This document shows, one piece after another, positions 25,108 through 41,164 of a DNA stretch of 64,000 bases. The translations under genes were made by a program, and so were the position numbers. Position 1 is the first letter of the stretch, and each line of letters begins with the position of its first letter. Origin of the DNA: Alphaproteobacteria bacterium UBA6038. GTDB lineage: Bacteria; Pseudomonadota; Alphaproteobacteria; Micropepsales; Micropepsaceae. The stretch is from positions 6,055 through 70,054 of the forward strand of contig DIZC01000104.1 of NCBI GenBank assembly GCA_002429315.1. The letters are read 5' to 3'. Below the pieces are notes generated by a model. The model saw only the letters and a list, made by a program, of their open reading frames with translations, was not told the origin of the DNA and did not search any database.

Positions 25108-25607
25108 TCGCCGGACGAACTGTACGGCGCATCGGGCGCGGTATAGGTCCCGCTTTTTCCGCCGGATTTCGACAACAGCCGAATGCCCTCGATAACAGCG
25201 CCGCGATCGATGGCCTTCACCATGTCGTACACCGTGAGGGCCGCTATCGTCACCGCCACGAGCGCCTCCATCTCGACGCCTGTCTGTGCCGTTGTGCGCG
25301 CGGTGGCGAGAATGCGCAGCGCAGAACGATCATCCTGCAGTTCGAATTCGATATTGGCTTTGGTCAGGGGAATGGGATGACAGAGCGGGATCAGTTCCGA
25401 TGTCTTCTTGGCGGCCATGATGCCGGCGAGCCGCGCCACCCCGAGCACATCGCCTTTCGGCGCATCGGATGAGAGGGCCACGTTATACGCGTCCGGTGAG
25501 AGCACGATGACGGCCGTGGCCTGTGCTTCACGCACCGTGATGTTCTTTTCAGAGACATCCACCATTCGGGCAGCGCCTTGCTCGTCCAAATGCGAGAGCT
25601 TAGTCAT
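25104..25607 (-). CDS. moaC: Cyclic pyranopterin monophosphate synthase
   Basis: [35 protein letters not shown]. Confidence 0.97.
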
Positions 25608-26404
25608 TTCCCCATCTTAGCACCGATCAGGTTGCGCGTCGCGGCTGCGACATCGGCCTGCCGCATGAAGGTTTCCCCGATCAGGAACGTCGTGACGCCC
25701 GCTCCAGCCAGAAGCTCGAGATCCGCGCGTGAGGCAAGGCCGCTTTCGGCGACCGCAAGAACATCGCCCGGAATTCGCGGCGCAAGCCTCAACGTCACGT
25801 CAAGATCGGTCTCGAATGTCCTCAGATCGCGATTGTTGATTCCGATCATCCCGGCGCCCAGCATCAGCGCACGATCGAGTTCCCGTTCGTCGTGAACTTC
25901 GACCAATGCATCCATCCCGTATTGGCCAGCCGCCGCCAACAACTCGCGTGCAAGGCCGTCGTCGACCATCGCCAGAATGATGAGGATGCAATCGGCGGCA
26001 TGGGCGCGGGCTTCTGCCACCTGGTACACATCGAGCAGAAAATCCTTTCGAAGCACCGGCAGCCCAACGGCAGCATGGACGAGCGGGACGTAGTCCAGAC
26101 AACCCTGAAAGGATGGCGCGTCGGTCAACACGGACAGGCACGTGGCGCCTCCGCTCTCGTAGGCTTGCGCCAAGGCTACCGGATCGAAGTCTGGACGAAT
26201 GATACCCTTCGACGGACTAGCCTTCTTGATCTCTGCGATCAGCGCGAACTCGCCGCTCGATTTCTTTTCCAGTAACCGCCCCCGAAAGCCCCGCGGCGGG
26301 GTTGTTTCTGCGGTTCGCGCTTCCAGATCGCGCAACGGCGCACGTGCCTTTGCGGCCACCACTTCCTCACGTTTGTAGGCGGCGATCTTGTTAAGAATGC
26401 TCAT
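25604..26404 (-). CDS. trpC: Indole-3-glycerol phosphate synthase
   Basis: [33 protein letters not shown]. Confidence 0.97.
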
Positions 26405-27425
26405 GTGCTTCTCGCGAGAACGCGACGAGCCTGCTCAGCACGGCGAGCGCGCCACTGTTTTCGATTGCGACCCTCGCTAAGACCGCGCCCGCTCGAAGGT
26501 CCGGAGCTTTGTCGGCGATAACGAGAGCCGCCGCGGCATTCAACACCACGATATCGCGATATGCGCCTCGATCTTTGCCCTCCAGCATGGAGATCAGCCG
26601 TTCCGCATTGTATCTTGCGTCATCGCCCTTCAGCGCATCGAGCGTGCTGCGCGGTGCACCGGCCTCTTCGGGATCCACGGTGCGTCGCTGGATTTCACCG
26701 TTCTCCAGGATTGTTGTGTGGGTAACCCCGGTCGTGGTCATCTCGTCCATACCGTCGCTGCCGTGCACGACCCACGCTTTCTTAGTACCAAGCTCGCCGA
26801 GCACCCGCGCGATCGGCTCTAGCCATTCCTCCGTATATACCCCCAGCAACTGGCGCCGCACGCCTGCCGGATTGCAGAGGGGGCCGAGCAGATTGAAAAT
26901 GGTCCGGACGCCCAGCCGTTGGCGTACCGGCGCCACGTTCTTCATCGCCGGATGGTAGTGTGGCGCGAAGAGGAAGCAGAGCCCCACTTCGCGCAGGCAG
27001 GCGCTCGCCGCTTCGGGCGAGAGCGTCACGTTTGCGCCCAACGTTTCCAGAATGTCCGCCGCCCCAGTGCGCGACGACATGTTGCGGTTGCCGTGCTTGG
27101 CCACCGGCACGCCGCAGGCGGCGACAACGAACGAGACCGCCGTCGAGATGTTCAGTGTGCCATGCCCGTCACCACCCGTGCCGCAGAGATCGATCGCGCC
27201 GGGCGGCGCGTCTATGGTCACCATGTTTGCCCGCATCGCGCGGGCCGCACCGGCGATTTCGGCAACCGTGGGCCCGCGCTGTGCCTGCGCGAGGAGGAAA
27301 TCGGCCAGATCGCCGTCCGCCACACTGCCTTTCATGATCGCCGCGAAGGCTTCCGAGGACTGCTCGGCGCTCAGGGACTCGCCGCGTCGAACCGGATCGA
27401 GGAAAAGCCGGAAATCGCTGCTCAT
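26391..27425 (-). CDS. trpD: Anthranilate phosphoribosyltransferase
   Basis: [34 protein letters not shown]. Confidence 0.97.
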
Positions 27426-28012
27426 GCCGGGACGCGGGCGAAGCTTTCCACGATGTTCAGAAAGTTCTGCAGCAGTGCATGTCCATTCTCGGACGCAATG
27501 CTCTCGGGATGGAACTGGACTCCGTGAACCGGATGCCGCCTGTGCATCGCTCCCATGATCACGCCGTCCTCGGTTGTCGCTGTGACCTCCAGTGCCTGGG
27601 GCACTGTCTCAGGCGCGATGGTCAGCGAATGATAGCGCGTGGCCTCGAAATCGTTGTTCAGGCCGCGAAACACGCCTTTGCCGGTGTGATGGATGCGGCT
27701 GAGCTTGCCATGCATCGGCTGCGGCGCCCGGACGACACGTGCGCCGTAAGCCTGTCCAATGGCCTGATGGCCCAGGCACACGCCAAGGATCGGCACGTGG
27801 CCATCGGCCTCTTCGACCAGGCTGACGCAGATTCCGGCCTCATTCGGCGTGCACGGACCGGGTGAGAGCACGATACCGTCCGGTTGCATAGCCAATGCCT
27901 GTGGCACCGAAATGTCATCGTTGCGCTTGACGACAACCTCTGCCCCCAACTCTCCCAGATAATGGAAGAGATTGAAGGTAAAGCTGTCGTAATTGTCGAT
28001 GAGTAGCAGCAT
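27422..28012 (-). CDS. trpG: Anthranilate synthase component II (glutamine amidotransferase)
   Basis: IDNYDSFTFNL, LSPGPCTP, GVCLGHQ, QFHPES. Confidence 0.96.
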   Translation of the reverse strand: MLLLIDNYDSFTFNLFHYLGELGAEVVVKRNDDISVPQALAMQPDGIVLSPGPCTPNEAGICVSLVEEADGHVPILGVCLGHQAIGQAYGARVVRAPQPMHGKLSRIHHTGKGVFRGLNNDFEATRYHSLTIAPETVPQALEVTATTEDGVIMGAMHRRHPVHGVQFHPESIASENGHALLQNFLNIVESFARVPA

Positions 28013-28108
28013 GTATCTTGGAATTCCGCTTATGGTACCCCATTTTGAGCGATGTCCGTTCCAGCGGCAACTGATCATGGCGCCGGCAGTTGGCCGGTCT
28101 GCACTCGG

Positions 28109-29650
28109 CTAAACCACAATTTCGATTAGAGTGGGACTGCAGCTTGCGAAACCGCGCGCCAAGTCTCGGGCGAAGTCCTCCAGGGTCGCAGCCTTCGTCG
28201 CCGACACGCCCATGCCGCTGGCGAGGGCCACCCAGTCGATGTCCGGTCGGCCGATCTCCAGCATGTCGAGGGCCTTCGGTCCGGGATTCTCGCCGGCGCT
28301 CACCAGCTCGCCCTTCAGGATGGCATAGGCGCGGTTCGCGAAGATCACCGTTGTGATCCGCAGGTTTTCGCGCGCGGCCGTCCACAAGGCCTGCAGCGTG
28401 TACATGCCACTGCCGTCCGCTTCGAGGCACAGCACCGGCCGTTCCGGGCACGCCACCGCCGCCCCAACGGCGAGCGGCATGCCGATTCCGATGGAGCCGC
28501 CGGTGTTCACCAGCCAGTCGTGCGGCGGCGCGCCGGCGGTCGCGGCCATCATACCTCGGCCGGAAGTGATGGATTCGTCGATGACGATGGCGCTCTCCGG
28601 CAGCAGCGCGCCCACCACCGCGGCAAGTCCGTTGAGCGTGATCTCGCCGGTCGGCAGTTGCGGGCGTGCCTGCGGCTGAAGCGCAGGCGTCGCATCGCCC
28701 GCGTGCAGGCGTTCGGCCAGCGCAGCGAGCGCGCCGGCGCCGTCTTCCTGCGGCGCGGATAAGGTAAACACCTCCGTCTTCTCCGCCGTCAGCACGCTCG
28801 GCTTGCGCGGATGCCCGAAGAACGCGACCGGCGGCGATGCGTTCAACAGAATCAGCGCGTCATATCCGGAAAGCTGCTCGATGGCCTGGTCGGTGACATA
28901 GGCGATGCGTTCCATTGGCGGCCGGCCGGCGCCGCGCTCGATCCGGGTAAAGGCGAAGGGCGCGAGCAGCTTCGCCCCGGTTTTCGCGGCGATCTGTCCC
29001 GCAATGATAAGCGGACCTCCGACGGTGAGCCCCGTGCCGAGCACCAGGCCCACGTGGCCGCGGCGCGTCATTAACCCTGCGGCGTGGGCGATCCGCGCCT
29101 CATCCGGCAGCGGTGCCGCCGGAATTGGCGGCACATCGGCGATCGCGCCGCCGTCGGACCACGCACTATCGGCGGGGAGGATGAGGGTGGCGATGCCCCC
29201 CGGCGCGGCCCGCGCCGCCGCAATGGCTTCGGCGCAATCCCGCCCCACCTCTGCCGCGGACTCCGCGCTCCGCAGCCAGGCCGAATGGGGCCGCGCCAGT
29301 GTCGCGATATCGGAGGCGAGCGGCGTCTCGTAGTGCCGATGGAAGCGGGCGTGGTCGCCGACGATATTGATTAACGGGACGCGCGCCCGGCATGCGTTGT
29401 GCAGGTTCGCCAGCGCATTCGTAAGGCCTGGCCCGAGATGAAGCAGCGTGCAGGCGGGTTTTCCGGTCATCCGGGCATAGCCGTCGGCTGCGCCGGAAGC
29501 CACGCCCTCGAACAGACACGGAATGCCGCGCATGGCCGGGACGCGGTCGAGCGCGGCCACGAAGTGAATTTCCGAGGTGCCGGGATTCATGAAGCACACG
29601 GTCACGCCGCCTCTGGTGAGCGTGCCGATCAGGCTTTCCGCGCCGTTCAA
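28109..29650 (-). CDS. ThDP-dependent enzyme, acetolactate synthase large subunit-like family
   Basis: TTG start after GGAGG; MNGAESL...NPGTSEIH, catalytic FEG, ThDP motif ADGSGMYT...FANRAY. Confidence 0.88.
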   Translation of the reverse strand: MNGAESLIGTLTRGGVTVCFMNPGTSEIHFVAALDRVPAMRGIPCLFEGVASGAADGYARMTGKPACTLLHLGPGLTNALANLHNACRARVPLINIVGDHARFHRHYETPLASDIATLARPHSAWLRSAESAAEVGRDCAEAIAAARAAPGGIATLILPADSAWSDGGAIADVPPIPAAPLPDEARIAHAAGLMTRRGHVGLVLGTGLTVGGPLIIAGQIAAKTGAKLLAPFAFTRIERGAGRPPMERIAYVTDQAIEQLSGYDALILLNASPPVAFFGHPRKPSVLTAEKTEVFTLSAPQEDGAGALAALAERLHAGDATPALQPQARPQLPTGEITLNGLAAVVGALLPESAIVIDESITSGRGMMAATAGAPPHDWLVNTGGSIGIGMPLAVGAAVACPERPVLCLEADGSGMYTLQALWTAARENLRITTVIFANRAYAILKGELVSAGENPGPKALDMLEIGRPDIDWVALASGMGVSATKAATLEDFARDLARGFASCSPTLIEIVV

Positions 29651-29719
29651 GGTATCGCCTCCCTCTTTGACTGCGTCGTAGGCCGCCGCTCAGACAACCA
29701 AACGGCCCTGTGAGCCATC

Positions 29720-31051
29720 ATGCGCGACGAAACCCTTTCCATCCATGCCGGCTACGAGGCCGATCCGGTCACCAAAGCGGTGGCGGTGCCGATCTACCAG
29801 ACTGTGGCCTATGAGTTCGACAGCGCCGATCACGGCGCGGCGCTGTTCAACCTCGAAACGCCGGGGAACATCTACACGCGCCTGTCCAATCCCACCACTG
29901 CGGTGCTGGAAAAGCGCATCGCGGCGCTGGAAGGGGGCGTGGAGGCCCTGTGCGTCGGCTCGGGCATGGCGGCGATTCACTATGCCATCGTGAACATCGC
30001 CGAAGCGGGCCACAACATCGTCTCGACTCCGCAGCTCTACGGCGCGACCTGGACCTTGTTTGAGCACTTCCTGCGCAAGCAGGGAATCGATGTGCGCTTC
30101 GCGGCGAGCGACAGTATCGCGGACATCCAGGCGCTGATCGATGAGAACACCCGCGCGGTCTACTGCGAGAGCATCGGCAATCCAGGCGGCAACATCGCCG
30201 ATATCGAGGCGCTGGCGGATTGCGCGCACAAGAACGGCGTGCCGCTGATCGTCGACAACACCATCGCCACGCCCATCCTGCTGAAGCCGATCCGTTTCGG
30301 CGCCGACATCGTGGTGCATTCGCTAACCAAGTTCGTCGGCGGTCACGGCACCACGATGGGCGGGGCCGTCGTCGATTCGGGAAATTTCCCGTGGGAGCGG
30401 CACGCGCAGCGCTTTTCCATGTTGACGCAGCCGGAACCTGCCTATCACGGGGTGGTCTACACCCAGCAATATGGCCGCGCCGCCTACGCAGCGCGCTGCC
30501 GCACCGTTTGTCAGCGCAACACCGGCTCAGTGCTCGCGCCGCTCAGCGCCTTCCTCCTGCTGCAGGGTGCGGAGACGCTGGCACTGCGCGTCGAGCGGCA
30601 TCTCGAGAACACGGCCAAGGTTGTCGCGTTTCTCGATAATCATCCGCAGGTCGCGTGGTGCGATTCCATCGGGCGGAAGGGCACGCCAGGGCACGCACTC
30701 GCAAAGAAATATCTTGGAGGGCAAGGCGGACCGTTTCTCACCTTTGGCGTCAAGGGCGGCTTCGAGGAAGGCAAACGGTTCTACGATGCGCTGAAGCTGT
30801 TCAAGCGGCTGGTGAACATCGGCGATGCAAAGTCGCTCGCCTGCCATCCTGCATCGACCACGCACCGCCAGCTCACGCCTGAGGAACTGGAGCGGACCGG
30901 CGTGAAGCCGGAGATGATCCGGCTCTGCATCGGCATCGAGCACATCGACGATATCATCGAAGATCTCGACCAGGCGCTCGCGGCGACGGGGGACGCGTCG
31001 CAACCAATGGCACGAGCGCCGCAGCTGCGGCTCGCGGCATCGCGGGGGTGA
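29720..31051 (+). CDS. O-acylhomoserine aminocarboxypropyltransferase (MetY/MetZ-like PLP enzyme)
   Basis: AVPIYQT, IYTRLSNPT, VDNTIATP, HSLTKFVGGHG (PLP lysine), NIGDAKSLACHPASTTH. Confidence 0.92.
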   Translation: MRDETLSIHAGYEADPVTKAVAVPIYQTVAYEFDSADHGAALFNLETPGNIYTRLSNPTTAVLEKRIAALEGGVEALCVGSGMAAIHYAIVNIAEAGHNIVSTPQLYGATWTLFEHFLRKQGIDVRFAASDSIADIQALIDENTRAVYCESIGNPGGNIADIEALADCAHKNGVPLIVDNTIATPILLKPIRFGADIVVHSLTKFVGGHGTTMGGAVVDSGNFPWERHAQRFSMLTQPEPAYHGVVYTQQYGRAAYAARCRTVCQRNTGSVLAPLSAFLLLQGAETLALRVERHLENTAKVVAFLDNHPQVAWCDSIGRKGTPGHALAKKYLGGQGGPFLTFGVKGGFEEGKRFYDALKLFKRLVNIGDAKSLACHPASTTHRQLTPEELERTGVKPEMIRLCIGIEHIDDIIEDLDQALAATGDASQPMARAPQLRLAASRG

Positions 31052-32073
31052 GCCGCATGGACACCGGCGTGCACAATTTGCTGGTGCGGCCCCGCGGCGG
31101 GTGGCTGAACGGCCATGCGCCCGATGCGCTGCACATCGGGCTGCTCAACAACATGCCGGATGCGGCACTGGAAAGCACCGAGCGGCAGTTCTTTCGCCTG
31201 CTGGGCGCCGCCGCCTCCGACATTTCCATCCGGTGGCACCTGTTCTCGCTGCGAAGCATCGCCCGGAGCGACACCGGGAGTATTCATCTGATTCATCAGA
31301 ACTATGGGACCCCGAGGGACCTCTACAACACCCCGCTGAACGCCTTGATCGTCACCGGCACCGAGCCCTTGCAGCAGGACCTGCGGCAGGAGACCTACTG
31401 GCCTGAGCTGGCGACGGTATTCGATTGGATCGAGCGCGAAGGTCCGCCGGCGATCTTCTCCTGCCTCGCCGCCCATGCGGCCGTGATGCACTTCGACGGC
31501 ATCGAGCGGCGGCGGCTGCCACAGAAGCGCTTCGGCCTTTTCGATCATGTGGTCGCGGCGGAGCATCTCCTTACCGCATCGCTAACCGCTCCGTTCCGAA
31601 TCGCCCATTCGCGCTGGAACGAAGTGCCGGCAGATGCGCTGAACGACGCCGGGTACGAAATCCTCACCTACGCCCCGGAAGCCGGTGCCGATCTTTTCAC
31701 TAAACGCAAGCGGAATGCGCTCCTGTTCCTGCAGGGCCACCCGGAGTACGACTCCGACACGCTCGCCCGCGAGTACCGTCGCGACGTGCGGCGGTATCTG
31801 GCCGGCGCGCGCGACAGCTATCCCAATCTTCCGCTACACTATTTCGGCCGGCAGGAAGCCGACGCGCTGCGACGCTTCCGCGATCGCGCATTCGCCGGGC
31901 GGGACGAGCGGCTGATGGACCAGTTCCCGGCCATTACTTCCCGACGGGTGTCCGCAACCGCTCCGATGTCGCCGGTGTTCGGTTCCTTGCTGCGCGAGAT
32001 CAACGCCCGCCGAGATAGCCGCTACGGCATGGCGCCGCGCCGGGCTGTGACGACCCAGGCGCACGCGCCATGA
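31048..32073 (+). CDS. Homoserine O-acyltransferase MetA-like, non-canonical
   Basis: LLNNMPD, IVTGTEP, YWPEL, FSCLAAHAA (Cys nucleophile), HSRWN, QGHPEYD (His-Glu), EYRRD; GTGA overlap with upstream stop. Confidence 0.87.
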   Translation: MSRMDTGVHNLLVRPRGGWLNGHAPDALHIGLLNNMPDAALESTERQFFRLLGAAASDISIRWHLFSLRSIARSDTGSIHLIHQNYGTPRDLYNTPLNALIVTGTEPLQQDLRQETYWPELATVFDWIEREGPPAIFSCLAAHAAVMHFDGIERRRLPQKRFGLFDHVVAAEHLLTASLTAPFRIAHSRWNEVPADALNDAGYEILTYAPEAGADLFTKRKRNALLFLQGHPEYDSDTLAREYRRDVRRYLAGARDSYPNLPLHYFGRQEADALRRFRDRAFAGRDERLMDQFPAITSRRVSATAPMSPVFGSLLREINARRDSRYGMAPRRAVTTQAHAP

Positions 32074-33239
32074 GCGCCATCGCTCTGCCGCGCCCGCCAG
32101 ACGATCCGCAGCAGGTTGAGCCGATCGACCTTTTGCTCGGCATTTGGCGGCACGTGCTGCAGACAGCGGATGTGGCGCCCGACAGCAATTTCTTCGACCT
32201 CGGCGGCGACTCGCTGCTGGCGCTCACGCTGTTTCTGGAGATCGAACGCGCGACCGGCCGTCATCTGCCGATCACCGCGATTTACGATGCGCAGACGGTG
32301 CAAGAGCAGGCAGCGCTCCTGGCAGGGCAGCCAGCGCCGGAATTTTCCCCCCTCGTGCTGCTCAAGGGCGGCGATGGCAGTGCGCCACTGTTCATCTTTC
32401 ACGGCGTCGGCGGGGCCGTCGTGGAGTTCGCCGCCCTCGGCAAACTCATCGACATTCCCGGTGAAGTTTTTGCCGTGCAGGCGCAGGGCGTGGACGGAAC
32501 GCTCCCTCCACTGGAATCGGTCGAAGAAATGGCGGCCCTTTATTTCGACAACATCCGTCAGAGACAGCCGGCCGGCCCCTATTGGCTGTGCGGCTATTCT
32601 TTCGGCGGACTGCTGGCCGTCGAAGTGGCGCGGCGGCTGAAGCAGGCTGGCGAAGAGATCGCGCTCCTCTTCCTGATCGACTCGTACGCGCACCCCGCCA
32701 CCTGGCCGCGCAAATCCCTGCTGAAGGTGCGCGCGCGGCGCGCTGGAAATCTAGTGCTGTCGCGATTGGAGCGGCCGCCGCGGGAGAACTTTGCCGTTCT
32801 GCTTGCCGCACTGGGGATGTTCGCGACGAACACCGCCGATAATGATGACGATTCGCAACTGCCGCCCGAGATGCGCAAGCGGAGTTGGCTTCTCAAGATG
32901 AAGCCCAATCTCCCGCTGCCACTCCTCGAAACCCGGCTGGCGACCGAGAGGGCCCTCTATCGCTATCGCCCCAGCTATTATTCGGGCGAGGCGCTGTTCC
33001 TGAAGGCGCAGCGTCCCGACCCTCATTTCCCCGACGATCCCAAGCACGTATGGCGCAAGCTCATTGGACAGTTGACGATGCAAGTGTGTCCGGGCTCGCA
33101 CCTCACCATCGTAAGCGAGCACGCCGCCGATGTGGCGGCACGGATCAATGCCTCGGTTCGCGAAGCGCGCCGCGCGCCCACACTGACGGTGGCGCCGAAG
33201 AGGGGTTTTCGCTGGTCAATGTCTGCGAGGCCGGTGTGA
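32070..33239 (+). CDS. Stand-alone carrier protein (PP-binding) + thioesterase didomain
   Basis: NFFDLGGDSLLA phosphopantetheine site; FHGVGG, GYSFGG (GxSxG), LIDS, PGSHL. Confidence 0.9.
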   Translation: MSAIALPRPPDDPQQVEPIDLLLGIWRHVLQTADVAPDSNFFDLGGDSLLALTLFLEIERATGRHLPITAIYDAQTVQEQAALLAGQPAPEFSPLVLLKGGDGSAPLFIFHGVGGAVVEFAALGKLIDIPGEVFAVQAQGVDGTLPPLESVEEMAALYFDNIRQRQPAGPYWLCGYSFGGLLAVEVARRLKQAGEEIALLFLIDSYAHPATWPRKSLLKVRARRAGNLVLSRLERPPRENFAVLLAALGMFATNTADNDDDSQLPPEMRKRSWLLKMKPNLPLPLLETRLATERALYRYRPSYYSGEALFLKAQRPDPHFPDDPKHVWRKLIGQLTMQVCPGSHLTIVSEHAADVAARINASVREARRAPTLTVAPKRGFRWSMSARPV

Positions 33240-34819
33240 TGCGGCACGAGCCTATGCAGCGGCAAGACGAGCTTCGCAGGGTCGAGGAGATCGTCTCGGT
33301 TCAGGCGATGAAGACGCCTGAACGGATTGCGCTGGTCCAAGATGGCCGCCATTGCACCTATGGCGAATTGCAGCGTGCCATCGCCTTTGGGGCAAAATGG
33401 CTGGCGCAACAGGGCGCGCGGCCGTGCGATCGCGTGCTGCTGGTGTGCGAGAACTCGTTTGCGGCAGTGGCGGTTTATTTCGCCTGCGCGACCGTCGGGG
33501 CATGGCCGGTGATCGTGAACGCCCGGCTCTCGGCGCGCGAGATCGACGACATCGCCGCGCACTGCGAAAGCCGGCTGATGCTGTTCACCACGTCCGGATC
33601 GTCGCGCGCCAAGGCCCACGCGGAGCGGCGCGGCGCAACGATGCTTCCGGACCTTGCCGGCGTGGGCGCCGTTGCCATCGGTCCGTTGAACGGGAGCGTG
33701 GAACAGGAAGCGGAAGCGGACAATAGCGACGGCCAATCGGATGTTGCCGCGCTCATCTACACCACGGGCACCACCGGCCGCCCTAAAGGCGTGATGCTGA
33801 CGCACACAAATCTGCTGTTCGTCGCGCGTGCCACCGCGGAAGCCCGCGGGCTGACGAGTGCGGACCGTGTCTATGCGACTTTGCCCATCTCGCATGCCCT
33901 GGGACTGACCGGCGTCTTGCTGGGCTCGCTGCTCTCCGGCGCGGAAGTGCATCTGACGTCGCGCTTCGACCCGGCGGCGGTCCTCGCCGAGCTCGGCAAC
34001 GGCGGCATCAGCGTGATGATCGGCACGCCCTCTATGTATGCGCTGCTGGTGGAATACGCCAAGCGCAAACAACTCGTTCCCATTGCCGCGCCATCGCTGC
34101 GGCTCATGTCCTCCGCCGGCGCGCCGCTCGATGCAACGACAAAGGCCGACGCCGAAGCGGCATTCGGGCAGACGCTCCACAACGGATATGGCATTTCGGA
34201 ATGCGGCCCCAGTATTTCTCTCACCGCGCTGGATGCGCCGCGCGGCGATTGCTCCGTGGGACGCCTGCTGGCCGGCGTGGAAGCGAGGCTGGTCGTCGGC
34301 GCGAACGACGAGGCTGGCACGAAAATGGGCGAGCTTTTGATCCGCAGCCCCGGCGTGATGAAGGGCTACTATCGCGCGCCGGAGGAAACGCGGGCGGCGA
34401 TCGACGATACGGGTTGGTTCCGCACCGGGGATCTCGCACGGATCGATAATGATCACCTGTTCATCGTCGGCCGCGCGAAAGAGATGATCATCCGGTTCGG
34501 ATTCAACGTTTATCCGGCCGAGGTGGAAGCGGTGCTGAACGCGCATCCACAAGTCGTGCGGTCGGTTGTGGCCGGCCATGTGCGCAACGGCACCGAGGAT
34601 ATCCTGGCCTTCGTGCAGATGGCAGGCGGAACGACAACCGCAGCCGCCGATCTGGCCGATTACTCGGCATCTCGGCTCGCGCCTTACAAGCGGCCCACGG
34701 AGATCGTCGTTGTTTGCGAAATGCCAATGAATGCGAACGGAAAGGTGTTGAAAGCAGAGCTCGTGGCTAAATGGATGGAATCGAATGCTTCGGCTCCTCC
34801 GGCGAGTGCGGCAGCATGA
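33239..34819 (+). CDS. Class I adenylate-forming enzyme (acyl-CoA/acyl-carrier ligase)
   Basis: YTTGTTGRPKG, GYGISE, FRTGDL, GRAKEMIIRFGFNVYPAEVE, NANGKVLK; TGATG overlap. Confidence 0.92.
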   Translation: MRHEPMQRQDELRRVEEIVSVQAMKTPERIALVQDGRHCTYGELQRAIAFGAKWLAQQGARPCDRVLLVCENSFAAVAVYFACATVGAWPVIVNARLSAREIDDIAAHCESRLMLFTTSGSSRAKAHAERRGATMLPDLAGVGAVAIGPLNGSVEQEAEADNSDGQSDVAALIYTTGTTGRPKGVMLTHTNLLFVARATAEARGLTSADRVYATLPISHALGLTGVLLGSLLSGAEVHLTSRFDPAAVLAELGNGGISVMIGTPSMYALLVEYAKRKQLVPIAAPSLRLMSSAGAPLDATTKADAEAAFGQTLHNGYGISECGPSISLTALDAPRGDCSVGRLLAGVEARLVVGANDEAGTKMGELLIRSPGVMKGYYRAPEETRAAIDDTGWFRTGDLARIDNDHLFIVGRAKEMIIRFGFNVYPAEVEAVLNAHPQVVRSVVAGHVRNGTEDILAFVQMAGGTTTAAADLADYSASRLAPYKRPTEIVVVCEMPMNANGKVLKAELVAKWMESNASAPPASAAA

Positions 34820-35205
34820 GCACGGCCGAAGGCGACTGGGTCTCCTGGAGCATCGACGGGCGGGCCGGTGCGAAGCTATGCCTCGGCCCCGTATTCCTCG
34901 GCGAGATCAGCTACCCACACGATTTGGGCCTGGGCGCGCGCTGGAGAGCGTGGTTGAACCATGAGCATCTCGGATTCTTCCGCAATGCCGAAGAAGCGAA
35001 AAGCCGGATCGAACGCGAAGTGCTGGAGCGGCTTCGTCTCATGGAGCCTGCGTGGACGAGATTTCAGGCGCGCGCCCAATCGAACGCAGCTACGCTGGAG
35101 TTCGCACCTGTCGCCGTGGTGAGGGCCGGCTCGTTTCCGCAACGCGAATCGAAAGCCGGTCCCGTGATGGCGAATTCCGCGCAGCGAAAAGGCCGCGCGG
35201 CCTAA
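34816..35205 (+). CDS. Hypothetical protein, 129 aa, coupled to the ligase gene
   Basis: ATG 34816 overlaps ligase stop (ATGA); host-like codons; no recognised domain. Confidence 0.65.
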   Translation: MSTAEGDWVSWSIDGRAGAKLCLGPVFLGEISYPHDLGLGARWRAWLNHEHLGFFRNAEEAKSRIEREVLERLRLMEPAWTRFQARAQSNAATLEFAPVAVVRAGSFPQRESKAGPVMANSAQRKGRAA

Positions 35206-35412
35206 GCGCACGATCATGCGCCTGTGAAAGCCGTGTGCCAGACCGATCGAGCGGCCCCTAACCGGCGCCTTTCCGGTGCCCGTGCATCCCAAAACGGAAC
35301 GATTCTCTTTTCTTTGAAACACTGTCGGCTGGCGCCAAATGTGCATCGCGGCGGCCAAATGCCCAGCCAACCGCATATCGCGTCGGAAAGAAATGGCCGA
35401 AGCTCCGGCAGG

Positions 35413-36681
35413 ATGCTGCATAGCGCGCTCCGGGCATTCGTATTGGTCTCGGGAGTTCCTCTGGGCTTCTACGGCTCCTCCGCCCTGGCGGTCTCTGTCG
35501 ACTGGCAACAAAGCTACAACAACTCAGGACGTACGGGCCAAAATCGGCATGAAACCATCTTGTCAGCTGCGAACGCGGCCGGCTTGCAACTGGAATGGGC
35601 GCGCTCGTTTGCCGGTGAGGTCCGGGCATTCGTGCTGAACGATCATTATGTCATCGCACGCGTTCCGAGTGACGATGGCCAGAACCTTGACCTCTGGTAT
35701 ATCAACTATGCAACCGGAGAGATGGCCTGGCGAGTCGATACCGGACCCGACGTTGCAGGAGCAAACGGAACGCTTGCGACCGGCGACAAGCTGATTTTCA
35801 GCGAGTGCGGCCTTGTCGATGCGGTGGGCTACAAATACAGCGGTATCTGCGCCTATCGAAAGAGGGATGGGCGCAAGGCCTGGCAGTTTTCCAACCCTTG
35901 CAACTGTACCCCCGAGGCGAACGTCGTCACCCCGCTCGTTTATCTCAGCAATGGCGTTGTAATCTTCGGATATTTCAACGGCGGCACCGGCGGCAAGGAA
36001 TACGTGCTGGCGGCGCGCGCCGCTACCGGCCAAATCCTTGGCGCGTATCAGACGGGAGGGATCGGCTCCCTTGGCAACGCCCCGATAACCGGCGGGACAG
36101 AAAAAGTGTTTTTCGATTGCGGCGGCAATGTGTGTGCGGTGGATCACAGAAACGGGAACTTCCTCTGGAAGTCGAACGTGGGCGCGCCGATCGGCGCCTT
36201 CAGCGCCGACCGAAATGGCCGACTCTACGCAACCCTCTGCAATGGCCCCGCGGGGCTGATCGCCCTGGACGCCGTGACCGGCGCGCCGCTTTGGTCGTAT
36301 GGGGGGTCCGGATGCAGTCAAGCGCCTGCAGCGGTCGCCGGCAATCGCGTTTACTTCGCGGCGGCGGACGGCAATGTGCGTGCTCTGGACGTGGGAACGG
36401 GAGCGGAAATTTGGTCCGCAGCTCCGGGGACCGCGTCATCGGCTTCGCTGGCCAATGGCGTGATGTACGTTGAGGGCCTATCCGGCGCGCCGGCGGCGAG
36501 CGCTTACGATGCGACGACGGGAGCGCTCCTCTGGAGCAGCCCATCCCACTCGGCGAGCCATCACCCCCCGCCCGTGATCGTCGATGGAACCGTGTACGTG
36601 GCGAACGGCGCGTGCGGGAATCTGTGCGCCTATCACCTGCCAGTCGCGGGCGCCCATCGCCCGTCGTTCTCGCGACACTGA
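35413..36681 (+). CDS. Secreted PQQ-binding-like (BamB-type) beta-propeller protein
   Basis: Signal-like N-terminus, WQQSYNNSGRTGQN start of mature region, repeated A-D-xxTG-xxxW blades; start uncertain (35359 or 35413). Confidence 0.8.
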   Translation: MLHSALRAFVLVSGVPLGFYGSSALAVSVDWQQSYNNSGRTGQNRHETILSAANAAGLQLEWARSFAGEVRAFVLNDHYVIARVPSDDGQNLDLWYINYATGEMAWRVDTGPDVAGANGTLATGDKLIFSECGLVDAVGYKYSGICAYRKRDGRKAWQFSNPCNCTPEANVVTPLVYLSNGVVIFGYFNGGTGGKEYVLAARAATGQILGAYQTGGIGSLGNAPITGGTEKVFFDCGGNVCAVDHRNGNFLWKSNVGAPIGAFSADRNGRLYATLCNGPAGLIALDAVTGAPLWSYGGSGCSQAPAAVAGNRVYFAAADGNVRALDVGTGAEIWSAAPGTASSASLANGVMYVEGLSGAPAASAYDATTGALLWSSPSHSASHHPPPVIVDGTVYVANGACGNLCAYHLPVAGAHRPSFSRH

Positions 36682-36810
36682 CCAAATTGGAACAAGCCCC
36701 ATGCGCTGGAGGCCTGTCAAATCGGCCGGCCCGTTCCTGGCGCGGCGATGCGACCAGGCCTCGTGGGGCTGCCTATGTTATCATTGCGGTCGAGTTGTGG
36801 AGAAATCGAG

Positions 36811-37701
36811 ATGCTTGAGATAGTCATCGACCAGCGCCGGCGCGATCTCGGCGGATTCGAGGTCGGGCGCGTGCTGCCGCATCCCCAGCGCCGGATGGTT
36901 GGCCCGTTCATCTTCTTCGATCACATGGGCCCTGTGACGTTTCCCCCCGGAATCTCGCGCAGCGTAGATGTGCGGCCGCATCCCCATATCGGGCTTTCGA
37001 CAGTCACCTATCTGTTCGAAGGCGAAATCATGCATCGCGACAGCGTCGGCTCCGAGCAGCCGATCCGGCCGGCCGAAGTGAATTGGATGACGGCAGGCCG
37101 CGGCATCACGCATTCCGAACGGTTCGAGAAAGCACGCGCTGAGGGCGGCGCCATGCACGGCATTCAGGCTTGGGCTGCGCTTCCGGAAGGCAGCGAAGAG
37201 ATCGAGCCAAGCTTTATGCACCACGGCCAGAGCGATCTGCCGGTCATGGAGGAGGGCGGGGTGAAAGCGCGTATTCTTGCCGGCCAGGCGTTCGGGTCCG
37301 AGGCGCGCGTGAAAACGCACTCGCCGATGTTTTATGCTCATCTGGACCTAGCGTCCGGCGCCAGCGTTGCGTTGCCGGACTATCCTGAGCGCGCGGCGTA
37401 TGTGGTTTCAGGCATAATCGAAGCGGCGGGCCAAAACTTTCATCCGGGACAGCTGCTGTTGTTCAAGCCGGGAGATTCGGCCGTTGTCACCGCTCACGAG
37501 CAGAGCACGTTGATGGCCCTGGGCGGCGAGCCGGTCGGCCCACGCTTCATCGAATGGAATTTCGTCTCCTCGTCCAGAGAACGCATCGAGCAGGCCAAGG
37601 CGGATTGGCGTGCCGGGCGGATGAAACTGCCCGATCTCGATCATGGCGAGTTCATTCCCCTGCCGCCCGATCCGCCGCCACCGCCCAATCCAATGTCTTA
37701 G
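36811..37701 (+). CDS. Pirin family protein
   Basis: GPFIFFDHMGP, PHPHIGLSTVTY, WMTAGRGITHSE metal ligands. Confidence 0.93.
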   Translation: MLEIVIDQRRRDLGGFEVGRVLPHPQRRMVGPFIFFDHMGPVTFPPGISRSVDVRPHPHIGLSTVTYLFEGEIMHRDSVGSEQPIRPAEVNWMTAGRGITHSERFEKARAEGGAMHGIQAWAALPEGSEEIEPSFMHHGQSDLPVMEEGGVKARILAGQAFGSEARVKTHSPMFYAHLDLASGASVALPDYPERAAYVVSGIIEAAGQNFHPGQLLLFKPGDSAVVTAHEQSTLMALGGEPVGPRFIEWNFVSSSRERIEQAKADWRAGRMKLPDLDHGEFIPLPPDPPPPPNPMS

Positions 37702-37731
37702 CTTGGCGGCCGCTATGGATTGACCAAGATA

Positions 37732-39273
37732 TTAGACGCCGACGCTGCTTGCGATTCCCCGGGCGTTTTCGCCCTCGGCAAACTGTGCGGCCTCGTCGGC
37801 GGCCGCGAACAGCGCCTTCGCCTTGTTCACGCTCTCCTGATATTCCGCTTCAGGCACGCTGTCGGCCACGATGCCGCCTCCCGCCTGCACGTACATCGTT
37901 CCGTCTTTGATAAGCGCAGTGCGCAAAACGATGCAGGTGTCCATCGAACCGTCGGCGGCAAAATAACCGACGGCACCTGCGTACACGGCGCCGCGCTTTT
38001 CCTTCTCCAACTCATCGATGATCTGCATGGCGCGGATTTTCGGCGCGCCGGACAGCGTGCCGGCGGGCAAACCTGCCGCCAATGCGTCGACCGCGTCCAG
38101 CCCGTCGCGGATTTCGCCTTCGACGTTGGACACCAGGTGCATCACGTGGCTGTAGCGCTCGACGAAGAAGCTGTCGGTCACGTGAACGCTGCCCACTTTC
38201 GCGACCCGGCCGACGTCGTTGCGGCCCAGATCGAGCAGCATCAGGTGCTCCGCCTTCTCCTTGGGATCGTTCGCCAGTTCCTGCGCCAGTTCTGCATCCT
38301 CTGCGGCAGATTTTCCGCGCGGACGGGTGCCCGCGATCGGCCGAATTGTGACGATGCGATCGCGGAGTCGCACCAAAATCTCCGGACTCGATCCCACGAT
38401 GGAGAAGCTGGGGAAGGCGAGGTGATACAGGAATGGAGACGGATTGAGCCGGCGCAAGGCCCGGTAGAGGGAGAACGCGGGCAACGTGAACGGCCGCCGA
38501 AATCGTTGACTTGGCACCACCTGGAAAACGTCACCGGCACGGATGTACGCCTTCGCTCGCTCCACCATAGCAAGGTAATCTGTCCGACTGGTGTTCGATC
38601 GCACGGCATCGCCTGCAACCGCGCCAGCCGTCGTCACGGCGGTGCGCGGAACGACGCGGCTGAGATCGTCGGTCACGTCATTCAGCCGCTCGCAGGCTCG
38701 CGCATAGGCGGCCCGCGCGTCCAAGCCAGCTTGCGGCCACACTGGCGTCACTACGGTGATCTCGTCGCGCACATTGTCGAAGACGGCGGTAACGGTTGGG
38801 CGGATCAGAACAGCATCCGGAATGCCGAGCGCGTCGGGAGGTGGCTCGCCCAGCCGCTCGATCAACCGCACCATGTCGTAACCGAGATAGCCGAACAGGC
38901 CCACCGCCATTGGCGGCAGATGAGGCGGCAGCATCATGCGCGTGGCGTCTACCAGGGAACGCAGGGACTGCAGCGGCGGCTCTCCGGCAGGCCCGAACGA
39001 CTCCCCCGCGCTGCGCTCATTGCGGTTGATCTCGGCCTGACCGCCGCGGCAGCGCCAGATCAAATCTGGTTTCAGGCCGACGATGGAATAGCGCCCGCGG
39101 CTTTCGCCCCCTTGCACGCTCTCGAAGAGGAAAGCATTGTCCCGCCCTTCGCACAGTTTCAGAAAAACCGAAACCGGCGTCTCGAGATCGCCTATCGATC
39201 GCCGATAAATCGGCTGAGGCCGGTTGGAATCGTAGAGCCGGGCGAAGGTCGCAAAGTCCGGCTCAATGGGCAT
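37732..39273 (-). CDS. trpE: Anthranilate synthase component I
   Basis: DLETPV, FQVVPSQRF, LNPSPF, SSPEILV, EHLMLLDLGRND, GTLSGAPKIRAM, QAGGGIVADS. Confidence 0.97.
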   Translation of the reverse strand: MPIEPDFATFARLYDSNRPQPIYRRSIGDLETPVSVFLKLCEGRDNAFLFESVQGGESRGRYSIVGLKPDLIWRCRGGQAEINRNERSAGESFGPAGEPPLQSLRSLVDATRMMLPPHLPPMAVGLFGYLGYDMVRLIERLGEPPPDALGIPDAVLIRPTVTAVFDNVRDEITVVTPVWPQAGLDARAAYARACERLNDVTDDLSRVVPRTAVTTAGAVAGDAVRSNTSRTDYLAMVERAKAYIRAGDVFQVVPSQRFRRPFTLPAFSLYRALRRLNPSPFLYHLAFPSFSIVGSSPEILVRLRDRIVTIRPIAGTRPRGKSAAEDAELAQELANDPKEKAEHLMLLDLGRNDVGRVAKVGSVHVTDSFFVERYSHVMHLVSNVEGEIRDGLDAVDALAAGLPAGTLSGAPKIRAMQIIDELEKEKRGAVYAGAVGYFAADGSMDTCIVLRTALIKDGTMYVQAGGGIVADSVPEAEYQESVNKAKALFAAADEAAQFAEGENARGIASSVGV

Positions 39274-39277
39274 TCCG

Positions 39278-41164
39278 TTACGAGCCCTCGCCAGTCAGCC
39301 GGTCGACCGCTTGCTGGTTGATGGAGACGCCTTCCTTCGTGCGGGCCGCAGTGGCGATGGTGCTGGAGAGATCCTCGCCAGCTTGCTGGCCCACCTGTCC
39401 TGCGAACCGCCTCAGATTCGGGCCCAGCAAGGCCATGGCGGGCGGGTGCTCCACGGCGGTCACCCGGGCGACGATGTAGCTGCTACCGTCCTTGGTCGGC
39501 CCATAAACGGCTTGGCCCGCGGGCACGCTGAAGATTTTGACCAGCAATGCACGAGGAAATGGCCCTTTCTCGGGTTCAGCATTGGCGGGGCGGCGCACTG
39601 GACCGCTGGTCTGCACGGCGGCGCCGATGGAAGCGGCCGCGGCTGCCAGGCTCTTTTGCGCCGTCGCTTTGGCGGCGATCTGCTTAGCGGCCGCCTCCAA
39701 GCGCTTTGCGGTCTGCTCCTTCTGCCAGGCGGCCGTTACCTCCGCGCGGATGGCATTGAGCGATTTCAGCTTGGGTGGGCGAACACCGTCCACTTTGACC
39801 ACGTATGTGGTGCCGGATTTCGCCTGGAAGGGATCCCCTTCTTCGCCCACTTCCGCCTTGAACATCTGCGCCAGCAACTCGGGATCGGTCGGGATTTGCG
39901 CCTTCGTGCCCTCAGGCGTGTCGCCGTGCGCGTCGATGGCGGGCACATGGCCCACGTGCATCCCGGATTTGATGGCCGCCTGGGTAATGTTTTCGCCGCG
40001 GCTGTTTTCGTCGATGTACTGATTGGCGACATCGGAAATCTTGGACCCGGCCAGCTCTGCGGCGATCTGCTTGCGGAGGTCCTCCTTGACGTCGGCAAAG
40101 GTCTTGCTCGTTCCGGGTGTGATGCTGACTACGTGAATGAGAGCGTAGCCAACCGGCGCTTTCAATGGCTGCGTGACGGCGCCCTGCGGCAGCGCGAACA
40201 CGGCCGAAGCACGGTCGCCCAGGTCCGCCTTGGTGAGCGTGCCGATCTGGATATCGGAGGAGCCGAGACCGCGCTGCTTGGCAAGATCGGCAAAGCTCGT
40301 TCCTGAGTCGATTTTTGCGCGCGCGGCTCGGGCGGACGCGAGGTCCGGAAACGTGATCTGCTCCAGTTCCCGCTTTTCGGGAACGATGTACTGCGATTTC
40401 TGAACCTCGTACTGCTGCTTCAGCTGAGCGTCGGTGACCTGGATCTTGCTCGCCACATCCTGCGGCGACACCCAGGCGAAGGTGACCTCGCGATATTCAG
40501 GCGTGCTGAACGGTTCCGGATGCGCTTTCATGTACGCTTGCAGTGCGGCGTCGTCCGGCGTGGGAGCCGGGCCCGCTGCGCTTGCCGGCAATGTGATGTA
40601 CTCCGCGGCGCGAATTTCGTTCAGGTAATTGAAAAAAGCTCTGGCGTAGCCGGGCGGCAATTCCAGACCAGCCCCCGCGGCGCCAAGGAATTGATCGCGC
40701 TCAAGCGCGCCCCGCACGTAATCGATGAAGCCCTGCTCGGTAAAACCCGCTTGGTCGATGATGCGCAGAAACGCCCCGTGATCGAACGTCCCCAGTGGCC
40801 CGACGAAGTTGGGGATGGCGCGAATCCTTGCTGAGACTGTATCGTCGGTGGCGGTGATGCCATAGCGCTGCATGTAGGAATCGACCGCGGTTTGGTTGAT
40901 AAGGCCGTCCAGCACCTGGTGCGCATAGGCGCGGGCCTGCGCTGGCTTGAGCACACCCTGGCGCGACGCCAACCGGGTCGCGTTGCGATAATCGCGCTGG
41001 AACAGATCGATCGGGATTTTCTCGCCGCCCACCGTGGCCACGCTGGTATCGGTGTTGCCGCGGAAAATATCTGCGATGCCCCATACCCCGAAGCTGAGCG
41101 CCAGTACGCCAAGAAATAGCGAAGCCACCCAGGACTTGGTGTATTTGCGCATCTGTTGAAGCAT
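39278..41164 (-). CDS. ppiD: SurA N-domain / PpiD-like peptidylprolyl isomerase chaperone
   Basis: MLQQMRK + TM (LSFGVWGI), SurA-N, rotamase-like region; conserved position before trpE. Confidence 0.88.
   Translation of the reverse strand: MLQQMRKYTKSWVASLFLGVLALSFGVWGIADIFRGNTDTSVATVGGEKIPIDLFQRDYRNATRLASRQGVLKPAQARAYAHQVLDGLINQTAVDSYMQRYGITATDDTVSARIRAIPNFVGPLGTFDHGAFLRIIDQAGFTEQGFIDYVRGALERDQFLGAAGAGLELPPGYARAFFNYLNEIRAAEYITLPASAAGPAPTPDDAALQAYMKAHPEPFSTPEYREVTFAWVSPQDVASKIQVTDAQLKQQYEVQKSQYIVPEKRELEQITFPDLASARAARAKIDSGTSFADLAKQRGLGSSDIQIGTLTKADLGDRASAVFALPQGAVTQPLKAPVGYALIHVVSITPGTSKTFADVKEDLRKQIAAELAGSKISDVANQYIDENSRGENITQAAIKSGMHVGHVPAIDAHGDTPEGTKAQIPTDPELLAQMFKAEVGEEGDPFQAKSGTTYVVKVDGVRPPKLKSLNAIRAEVTAAWQKEQTAKRLEAAAKQIAAKATAQKSLAAAAASIGAAVQTSGPVRRPANAEPEKGPFPRALLVKIFSVPAGQAVYGPTKDGSSYIVARVTAVEHPPAMALLGPNLRRFAGQVGQQAGEDLSSTIATAARTKEGVSINQQAVDRLTGEGS

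Follow-up and report, generated by a model that had tools for sequence, protein, structure and literature searches.

A conserved six-gene cassette of methionine-synthesis paralogues, a carrier protein and a TPP enzyme as a candidate accessory pathway to a homoserine-derived product

In the 64,000-nucleotide window analysed from the soil alphaproteobacterium UBA6038, six tightly linked genes are arranged as a divergent TPP enzyme followed by a MetY-like PLP enzyme, a MetA-like acyltransferase, a carrier–thioesterase didomain (PCP-TE), an adenylating ligase and a small lineage-specific protein, orf5 (Table 1). The TGA stop of the MetY-like gene at 31049-31051 overlaps a GTG at 31048 (GGGGGTGAGCC), an alternative MetA-like start being the ATG at 31057, while the following junctions consist of an ATGA overlap at 32070 before the PCP-TE gene (GCCATGAGC), a TGATG at 33237-33241 before the ligase gene (GGTGTGATGCGG) and an ATGA overlap at 34816 before orf5 (AGCATGAGC). 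Reading of the junction sequences confirmed all four stop/start overlaps of the original prediction, and domain and profile searches confirmed its four domain assignments. Its unit of five coupled genes also stands, but it had missed the conserved divergent TPP enzyme. As it had likewise stated, condensation and ketosynthase domains are lacking: domain search detected neither in the genes between 23917 and 41164. The downstream PQQ-propeller and pirin genes are not part of the conserved set. Between the TPP and MetY-like genes, the intergenic region contains neither an Rfam riboswitch nor a consensus sigma-70 site.

Table 1. Genes and intergenic region of the cassette, in window coordinates.
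Feature	Coordinates	Strand	Domains or remarks
TPP-dependent enzyme, benzoylformate-decarboxylase-like (NCBIfam PRK07586)	28109..29650	-	TPP_enzyme_N + TPP_enzyme_C
Divergent intergenic region, presumed shared promoter	29651..29719	.	69 bp, between TPP gene and MetY
MetY-like PLP enzyme, putative O-acylhomoserine gamma-replacement, dedicated paralogue	29720..31051	+	Cys_Met_Meta_PP, E 1.9e-125
MetA-like (HTS family) putative homoserine O-acyltransferase, distinct subfamily	31048..32073	+	HTS, E 4.6e-58
PCP-thioesterase didomain, carrier and putative release/transfer enzyme	32070..33239	+	PP-binding + Thioesterase domains
Stand-alone adenylating ligase, acyl-CoA-synthetase type	33239..34819	+	AMP-binding + AMP-binding_C
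orf5, small conserved protein, coupled to ligase	34816..35205	+	no family match

Judged by their motifs, the catalytic residues of the MetA-like and MetY-like enzymes, the PCP, the thioesterase and the ligase are intact. The MetY-like enzyme contains the PLP lysine motif HSLTKF and passes the subfamily cut-off of TIGR01326 (603 bits against 495) while failing every equivalog cut-off. The MetA-like protein, the sole HTS gene product of the genome, keeps the catalytic Cys (FSCLAAHA), the His and Glu (QGHPEYD) and the equivalents of E. coli Arg193 and Arg249; the lysines of the E. coli LNLMPKK motif are replaced (NNMPDAAL), TG[TA]EP stands in place of TGAPxG/E, and the C-terminus is extended by about 90 residues. 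It scores 358.9 against a cut-off of 358 with NF003776, and 133 against 495 with TIGR01001.

Four PCP-TE residues, Ser48 (GGDS), Ser177 (GYSFGG), Asp204 and His344, do not vary among five orthologues, and among solved structures the didomain is closest to the PCP-TE ends of an Acinetobacter NRPS, EntF and Pks13. A PPTase search of the genome detected a single enzyme, of the AcpS type, which counts against the explanation preferred below. The ligase contains a TTGTTGRPKG motif and the C-terminal NGK lysine; the LPISHALGL region after TTGTTGRPKG is presumably acyl-CoA-synthetase-like and unlike that of NRPS A domains, and the most similar structures belong to feruloyl-, fatty-acyl- and malonyl-CoA synthetases and MenE. 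The TPP enzyme scores 709.7 bits against a cut-off of 363 with NF005760, has benzoylformate decarboxylases as its best solved relatives (E 1e-37), and keeps the cofactor Glu and the His70 equivalent. It is a probable 2-oxo-acid decarboxylase, yet Phe occupies the position of His281, the second catalytic His in benzoylformate decarboxylase, so the enzyme may act as a carboligase instead of a simple decarboxylase. The orf5 product, for which the AlphaFold model has a pLDDT of 59, had been regarded as an orphan; it is a real conserved protein, restricted to one lineage. Its 40 metagenomic homologues, all of them hypothetical proteins, have in common an N-terminal domain of some 85 residues that is invariant, followed by a variable tail. 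Among 1.8 billion proteins it matches only 23 representative clusters, and its position behind the ligase is confined to the closest relatives (L001, L002, L019/L146 and L145).

A search for separate housekeeping genes was positive: MetX (NF001209, 534 bits against 331), MetY (NF004650, 780 against 667) and MetZ (TIGR01325, 566 against 510) are all encoded elsewhere in the genome. The cassette MetY is 48% identical to this housekeeping MetY and 61–83% identical to cassette MetYs across phyla. Within the genus, moreover, the cassette is confined to 9 of about 60 genomes, and roughly half of the members lack an HTS gene altogether. Because of the separate housekeeping set and this restricted distribution, the cassette genes are considered dedicated paralogues, in agreement with the original prediction of a condensation-free carrier-protein pathway built around methionine-synthesis paralogues.

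The five enzyme genes occur together in identical order in seven Rhizomicrobium-type loci (L001-L004 and L019-L021), and this recurrence of tight coupling and gene order argues against a chance arrangement. In the acidobacterial loci L022 and L026 all five are present but rearranged, with PCP-TE and TPP genes on the plus strand and ligase, MetA and MetY genes on the minus strand; L025 is arranged likewise, with MetA divided between two shorter ORFs, and only part of the set is present in L023. The enzymes are thus conserved jointly across Alphaproteobacteria and Acidobacteriota, while the flanks of the cassette loci are not conserved. Of 14 ligase-bearing loci, 12 contain the TPP gene along with the cassette, the rearranged loci of Acidobacteriota among them, and the PCP-TE, MetA and TPP genes of the cassette tier (at least 62% identity for the TPP enzyme) share contigs in eight relatives within the genus as well as in UBA6038.

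A neighbourhood survey of the MetA subfamily covered 80 loci, in 75 of which MetY adjoins MetA. A ligase of the cassette type is the commonest partner of this pair (48 loci), followed by a flavin monooxygenase (38), the TPP enzyme (30), PCP-TE (29), a BCAT-like aminotransferase (22; NF009896, 473 against 262) and an ATP-grasp protein (at least 10); the aminotransferase is found together with the TPP enzyme in 16. Among the 48 ligase-bearing loci the TPP enzyme is missing from 18 and PCP-TE from 21, so the route cannot be identical everywhere. Approximately seven extended acidobacterial loci having both TPP enzyme and aminotransferase also contain an aldehyde dehydrogenase. The subfamily loci are often enclosed by exopolysaccharide clusters, with Wzy, Wzz, Wzx, GT2, Bac_transf and Acyl_transf_3 neighbours in L100, L022, L031, L172 and L154, and the minimal Rhizomicrobium cassettes lie alongside a MATE exporter or amino-acid permease. 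At the Methylocapsa locus L172, a GerE/LuxR-type HTH protein stands beside MetY, the only one seen.

Collectively, the six genes probably constitute a conserved, horizontally spread accessory cassette encoding a dedicated, carrier-dependent pathway to a homoserine-derived product; a literature search found no published characterisation of the cluster. In the proposed route, the MetA-like enzyme would O-acylate homoserine with an ordinary acyl-CoA as donor, and the MetY-like enzyme would exchange the acyl group for a nucleophile to give a gamma-substituted 2-aminobutyrate, sulfide or a thiol being the default guess because this enzyme closely resembles sulfhydrylases. A branched-chain-type aminotransferase, cassette-encoded in many relatives and presumably a housekeeping enzyme in UBA6038, would yield the 2-oxo acid, which the TPP enzyme would decarboxylate in an Ehrlich-type shortening; after oxidation, the 3-substituted propionic acid would be adenylated by the ligase and loaded onto the PCP, from which the fused thioesterase would release it or hand it to an acceptor. 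This specific order of steps is put forward tentatively from gene content. It is supported by the acyl-CoA-synthetase rather than amino-acid-activating type of the ligase, and by the linked aminotransferases and aldehyde dehydrogenases of related loci. Neither a cassette aminotransferase nor an aldehyde dehydrogenase lies within the 64,000-nucleotide window, so these two steps must be borrowed. In known Ehrlich-type systems, in which a transaminase and a TPP 2-oxo-acid decarboxylase act in sequence (methionine to 3-methylthiopropionate), the likeness lies in the linkage of BCAT and TPP enzymes to an amino-acid-producing pair with an acid-type ligase downstream; the cassette differs in the altered active site of its TPP enzyme and in an oxidation step not encoded in the window.

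The original prediction had the ligase load the PCP and the MetA-like enzyme take the acyl group from the carrier, leading to an acyl-homoserine or homocysteine (thio)lactone-type signal. Its dedicated MetA/MetY carrier pathway is retained here, whereas the carrier-to-MetA transfer and the signal are very improbable. The loss of the two LNLMPKK lysines and of the acetyl/succinyl signature residue, the usual proximity of an adenylating enzyme and a carrier, and the resemblance of the ligase to dicarboxylate-activating enzymes together with the retained arginines would fit such a transfer. However, the MetA subfamily accompanies MetY without ligase or carrier in Bradyrhizobium centrosematis (LysR-MFS-amidase-MetY-MetA-deacetylase) and without ligase in Methylocapsa acidiphila; moreover, with MetY acting after MetA, the acyl group is a mere leaving group that is discarded, which makes a bespoke acyl donor pointless, and the TPP enzyme, omitted from that scheme, is left unexplained. 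Nothing in the gene neighbourhoods points to an AHL-like or quorum-sensing signal, given that related loci lie in polysaccharide clusters or beside transporters and that the Methylocapsa HTH protein carries a response-regulator receiver domain. That ordinary or back-up methionine/homocysteine genes merely adjoin unrelated carrier-protein genes is extremely improbable. NCBIfam naming would indeed give MetA, by its narrow NF003776 pass, and an OAH sulfhydrylase family member, and the direct sulfhydrylation pair metA/metX-metY (Thermotoga MetY 7KB0, E. coli MetA 7CBE/6MTG) shares with the cassette two enzyme families, the Cys-His-Glu and PLP lysine residues and the expected chemistry of homoserine O-acylation and gamma-replacement. 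Unlike that pair, however, the cassette genes are extra paralogues beside a full housekeeping set, with changes to the N-terminal and specificity motifs of MetA, a long extension at its C-terminus, a patchy distribution in the genus, no SAM riboswitch, and a linkage to ligase, PCP-TE and TPP enzyme kept across phyla despite rearrangement.

Two further schemes retain the MetA/MetY pair and change the nucleophile. Fub5/Fub7 of fungal fusaric acid biosynthesis are a known precedent for adding an enol carbon, here from an aldehyde that the TPP enzyme would make out of a 2-oxo acid, to the vinylglycine intermediate derived from O-acylhomoserine, after which cyclisation would give a substituted piperideine, pipecolate or picolinate carboxylic acid that the ligase loads onto PCP-TE. 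This route is unlikely as a whole, although it brings together the TPP enzyme, the aminotransferase, MetA, MetY and a ligase of the aryl/heterocyclic-acid type, and although the MetY-like enzyme scores almost equally with C–C-forming Fub7 (437 bits) and with true OAH sulfhydrylases (482 bits) among PDB structures. The cassette MetY nevertheless passes the sulfhydrylase subfamily cut-off, and MetY-MetA pairs of the subfamily also occur without any TPP enzyme. Fub5/Fub7 and CndF (citrinadin) have in common with the cassette a homoserine O-acyltransferase and a sulfhydrylase-like PLP enzyme in secondary metabolism; the cassette, in contrast, is bacterial, has a MetA-type rather than MetX-type acyltransferase, and lacks a PKS or carboxylic acid reductase while having a stand-alone ligase and PCP-TE. 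D-cycloserine biosynthesis by DcsE/DcsD/DcsG combines an O-acyltransferase, a PLP replacement enzyme, an N-hydroxylated nucleophile and an ATP-grasp enzyme, paralleling MetA, MetY, flavin monooxygenase and ATP-grasp of the extended versions; it starts from serine, proceeds by beta-replacement and uses no carrier protein, ligase or TPP enzyme. By analogy, a flavin monooxygenase would make a hydroxylamine that the MetY-like enzyme couples to O-acylhomoserine in N–O or N–N chemistry, with ATP-grasp and ligase/PCP-TE forming amide bonds or cyclising the product, a decidedly unlikely model. The class-B monooxygenase and ATP-grasp protein are recurrent in the survey, the former adjoining MetY or ligase in L022, L031, L100 and G013, and orthologues 59% and 58% identical are kept as a divergent pair on contig C19 of UBA6038; this pair has no necessary role in the Ehrlich-type route. 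Yet the pair is unlinked to the cassette in UBA6038 and absent from the seven Rhizomicrobium-type loci, the monooxygenase occurs in 32 of about 60 genus genomes, commonly without the cassette (among the 9 cassette-bearing genomes, 6 or 7 have it), it has no close characterised relative, and the TPP enzyme has no role.

The preferred explanation, a horizontally mobile accessory unit in which homoserine-derived acids are made, shortened and loaded onto a carrier, is judged evenly balanced, a compromise between the probable dedicated pathway and the tentative order of its steps. In DltA/DltC, the RfbK/RfbL tetronate branch of Vibrio cholerae O1 and the exosortase-A-associated TIGR03098 set, a ligase likewise loads a small acid onto a carrier, and these systems, like the cassette relatives, lie in or near polysaccharide loci and lack condensation domains. 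The cassette differs from them in the fusion of its carrier to a type-I thioesterase and in its MetA/MetY/TPP supply module, which has no counterpart there, and its ligase is not a TIGR03098 member, scoring 195.7 bits against a cut-off of 592. In many other genomes a surface polysaccharide probably serves as acceptor; in UBA6038 and the minimal Rhizomicrobium cassettes, the pathway may end in a small molecule that is exported in free form.

The cassette is a real, conserved and uncharacterised accessory pathway, in which a TPP enzyme gene stands back to back with genes for a MetY-like enzyme, a MetA-like enzyme, a PCP-TE didomain, a ligase and the orphan orf5. All junctions among the five plus-strand genes are stop/start overlaps, and Pfam together with NCBIfam identifies a PLP enzyme, a MetA-like protein, a PP-binding plus Thioesterase protein and an AMP-binding ligase, in agreement with the layout and the four domain assignments of the original prediction. 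Condensation and ketosynthase domains, which had also been reported missing, are absent from the genes of 23917-41164; the ligase is stand-alone, and an NRPS, with a condensation domain and in cis an A domain of the amino-acid type, is lacking. The window has a G+C content of about 63%, and composition is not anomalous. Rfam detects no riboswitch upstream of the operon, elsewhere within the window or at met loci of the housekeeping set, and promoter and terminator scans return counts not above those of shuffled sequence. Among sequencing runs, reads of this stretch occur in soil metagenome DNA runs only.

Coordinates of the cassette, its surroundings and related features (window positions unless a contig or locus is named)
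Feature	Position	Strand	Remark
TPP enzyme	28109-29650	-	divergent from MetY, 69 bp upstream
Five ORFs, MetY-like to orf5	29720-35205	+	
Stop/start overlap	31048		GTGA
Second possible MetA start	31057		ATG
Stop/start overlap	32070		ATGA
Stop/start overlap	33237-33241		TGATG
Stop/start overlap	34816		ATGA
PQQ-like beta-propeller protein	35224-36681		3' of cassette; probable internal start and signal peptide near MLHSALRAF...
Pirin	36748-37701		3' of cassette
trpE	37732-39273	-	
trpG-trpD-trpC-moaC-moeA and ppiD-trpE groups	23917-28078 and 37732-41164		about 9.6 kb apart
ATP-grasp/class-B flavin monooxygenase pair	C19:7036-9535		own genome, locus L102; divergent
Phosphopantetheinyl transferase	C57:87506-87784		own genome, locus L225; outside window
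Rhizomicrobium-type cassette	L001 532-5363		between imuB-dnaE2 mutagenesis pair and MATE exporter
Same-genus cassette variant with downstream genes	L103 12331-14968		two AMP ligases, SDR, ACAD-like, ACP, hydrolase, MetY, MetA
Variant MetA-like gene	L110 (G022:C107) ~9433-10386		FSGQAAAA; HGR for HSR

The order TPP(-), MetY, MetA, PCP-TE, ligase is identical in seven Rhizomicrobium-type genomes (loci L001-L004 and L019-L021), while the Acidobacteriota loci L022 and L026 carry the same genes reordered as PCP-TE+ TPP+ / ligase- MetA- MetY-; a further acidobacterial locus, L025, has a split MetA, and L023 is partial. The TPP gene is counted in the unit because related loci carry it alongside, and a linkage that persists in two phyla despite a changed gene order argues strongly for a functional unit. 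The PQQ-propeller, pirin and trp/moa flanks show no such conservation, and neither the propeller nor the pirin gene is kept with the cassette in any related locus.

The cassette lies between trpE and trpG-trpD-trpC-moaC-moeA. A simple island between trpE and trpG was considered and rejected, since relatives of the same genus have other, non-homologous sequence upstream of trpG. Genome G004 holds 5.9 kb of other DNA between the two genes, and trpE directly adjoins trpG only in distant members of the class. The gap is filled differently across genomes of the genus, which indicates a variable region and no clean insertion.

The cassette genes are probably not this organism's methionine genes. The assembly is 97.6% complete and contains a single HTS gene, that of the cassette, together with the separate housekeeping genes that the original prediction had asked for, namely MetX, which exceeds its equivalog cut-off (534 vs 331), and MetZ on contig C4 (566 vs 510). 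Additionally, an O-acetylhomoserine sulfhydrylase on contig C5 passes NF004650 (780 vs 667), and three more cystathionine-type paralogues are present. Among the roughly 60 same-genus genomes within a 101-genome search, nine carry the cassette, the own genome counted, with identities of at least 46% for PCP-TE, 50% for MetA and 62% for the TPP enzyme, all on same contigs; the HTS gene is absent from about half of the genus.

The MetA-like protein matches Pfam HTS (PF04204, E 4.6e-58) and keeps the catalytic triad Cys142-His235-Glu237, the FSCLAAHA Cys and QGHPEYD His/Glu aligning with E. coli MetA. Compared with the E. coli and Thermotoga enzymes, cassette MetA proteins retain the nucleophile Cys, the paired His and Glu and the equivalents of both Arg residues, and at the C-terminus they are longer by a conserved stretch of about 90 residues. 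The protein falls outside the MetA_succinyl and MetA_acetyl equivalogs and lacks the position-111 Gly/Glu signature, scoring 133 vs a cut-off of 495 for TIGR01001 and 131 vs 460.5 for NF047918, and is borderline only for NF003776 (358.9 vs 358). Specifically, TG[TA]EP plus a variable residue stands where TGAPxG/E is expected, and replacement of LNLMPKK by NNMPDAAL..TE removes both lysines. A separate MetA-like gene at locus L110 has lost the catalytic Cys, has no MetY detected alongside and may be a degenerate copy. MetA-PCP fusions suspected in long open frames of genomes G010 and G040 are ruled out, the genes lying in different reading frames.

The MetY-like protein belongs to the TIGR01326 subfamily (603 bits vs a cut-off of 495) and contains the PLP-lysine motif HSLTKF. 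It lies below every equivalog cut-off, the level at which a match implies sulfide as the nucleophile; the best is NF004757 (654.7 vs 790). It shares 48% identity with the MetY of its own genome and 61-83% with cassette MetYs in other phyla.

The TPP enzyme scores 709.7 vs a cut-off of 363 for NCBIfam PRK07586 (NF005760), and its nearest relatives of solved structure are benzoylformate decarboxylases, of which it retains the Glu47 and His70 equivalents and has Phe at the His281 equivalent. The PCP-TE is of the EntF/Pks13 type, with a GGDS serine in the PP-binding domain and the Ser-Asp-His triad of a type-I thioesterase. The ligase resembles an acyl-CoA synthetase and not an amino-acid-activating domain, and it lies outside the exosortase-A-associated family TIGR03098 (195.7 bits vs a cut-off of 592.35). 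The sole phosphopantetheinyl transferase match in the assembly is AcpS-type in appearance, and no Sfp-type enzyme for an NRPS-style PCP was found there. Genomes G020, G033, G039, G055 and G057, which have no MetA-like gene and mostly have the monooxygenase, contain relatives of the PCP-TE at 36-39% identity within open frames 900-1386 aa long; these frames may represent a fused A-PCP-TE of a MetA-independent system.

The fifth coupled gene, orf5, is a genuine gene. Domain searches give no family match; its 40 metagenomic homologues share an N-terminal domain, about 85 residues long, that is invariant, and in the closest relatives it directly follows the ligase gene. A profile search places it in a tiny, lineage-restricted family of small proteins, with only 23 representative clusters among 1.8 billion proteins. 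Its AlphaFold model (pLDDT 59) is too poor for fold search or interpretation.

A scan of species-representative genomes with a MetA-subfamily alignment yielded a wider family, of which the 80 best loci were analysed. Within these 80, the MetA gene is accompanied by MetY in 75, a ligase of the cassette type in 48, a class-B flavin monooxygenase in 38, the TPP enzyme in 30, PCP-TE in 29 and a BCAT-family aminotransferase (NF009896, 473 vs 262) in 22. Other versions have a free ACP in place of PCP-TE, and some contain two different AMP ligases, an ACAD-like protein, an SDR and a hydrolase. Polysaccharide genes are frequent neighbours: Wzy, GT2 and Wzz at L100, GT2 at L022, Bac_transf at L031, Acyl_transf_3 and a hexapeptide transferase at L154, and Wzx and Wzz in Methylocapsa acidiphila B2, which with several Bradyrhizobium species is among the cultured organisms that have related cassettes. 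Minimal Rhizomicrobium cassettes adjoin a MATE exporter, or a 2OG oxygenase and an amino-acid permease. Downstream of the same-genus variant at L103 lie genes for a TPR/2OG-oxygenase protein, a GT21-type glycosyltransferase and a radical SAM enzyme, the latter two with likeness to hopanoid side-chain genes.

The monooxygenase and ATP-grasp pair on contig C19 of the own genome is orthologous, at 59% and 58% identity respectively, to genes inside extended cassettes elsewhere. It is distant from polysaccharide genes; its neighbours are genes for an asparaginase-2 family protein, an acetyl-CoA hydrolase/transferase and an M28 peptidase. Neither protein has an informative relative among solved structures, and within the genus the monooxygenase correlates weakly with cassette presence.

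The analysis shows that the set is conserved, that catalytic residues are intact and that the MetA and MetY genes are paralogues; beyond this we tentatively infer a linear Ehrlich-type route from homoserine to a carrier-bound acid, the reading that would give every conserved-core enzyme a role. MetA would activate homoserine and MetY would install a nucleophile; the product would be shortened in Ehrlich fashion by the BCAT-type aminotransferase and the TPP enzyme, adenylated as an acid by the acyl-CoA-synthetase-like ligase and passed to the PCP, from which the thioesterase would release it. An aldehyde dehydrogenase in about seven extended acidobacterial loci that have both TPP enzyme and aminotransferase gives weak additional support. 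The original prediction had the ligase load an acid on the carrier and MetA pass the acyl group to homoserine, with a non-proteinogenic amino acid or, by a LuxI-independent route, an acyl-homoserine/homocysteine (thio)lactone-type signal as the end product. That acyl transfer, though biochemically possible, is disfavoured on four grounds: Bradyrhizobium centrosematis (LysR-MFS-amidase-MetY-MetA-deacetylase) has the same MetA subfamily with MetY but neither ligase nor carrier, and Methylocapsa has the pair without ligase; MetY would discard the acyl group; the TPP enzyme would have no place; and no context seen hints at signalling, these being polysaccharide loci or transporters.

The linear route has its own weaknesses. 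Its aminotransferase and oxidation steps are not encoded within the window, the TPP enzyme lacks the His281 equivalent of benzoylformate decarboxylase, the monooxygenase/ATP-grasp pair is given no role, and the only PPTase detected is AcpS-type. Sequence does not separate the linear route from fusaric-acid-like C-C formation, with which a Fub7 match of 437 bits, near the 482 bits of true sulfhydrylases, is consistent, or from cycloserine-like N-O chemistry. A tentative and rather doubtful proposal is that the MetY-like enzyme is no sulfhydrylase but a SAM-independent 3-amino-3-carboxypropyl transferase, joining O-acylhomoserine to a non-sulfide nucleophile to give carrier-tethered products that are then attached to surface polysaccharide or exported. 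Candidate nucleophiles would be a flavin-monooxygenase hydroxylamine, a TPP-derived aldehyde carbon or a carrier-derived thioacid. If true, bacteria would have a widespread and so far undescribed way of making a new class of building blocks from homoserine.

Targeted full-text literature searches found no published description of a cluster of this kind, and a full-text search on the methylthiopropionate route gave nothing specific to the cassette. The underlying logic, O-acyl activation with PLP gamma-replacement and ligase/carrier tethering, is known, and the cassette is new as a variant within it. Soil Alphaproteobacteria, Acidobacteriota and other phyla commonly have dedicated MetA/MetY pairs in carrier-protein cassettes, many of them within exopolysaccharide loci, and the window version, with six genes, is compact and suited to heterologous expression. 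One solved product would put right the automatic methionine-synthesis labels that hundreds of genes now carry, would give the fungal gamma-substitution pathways a counterpart in bacteria and may bring to light a new decoration, other than sugar, on the surface polymers of soil bacteria.
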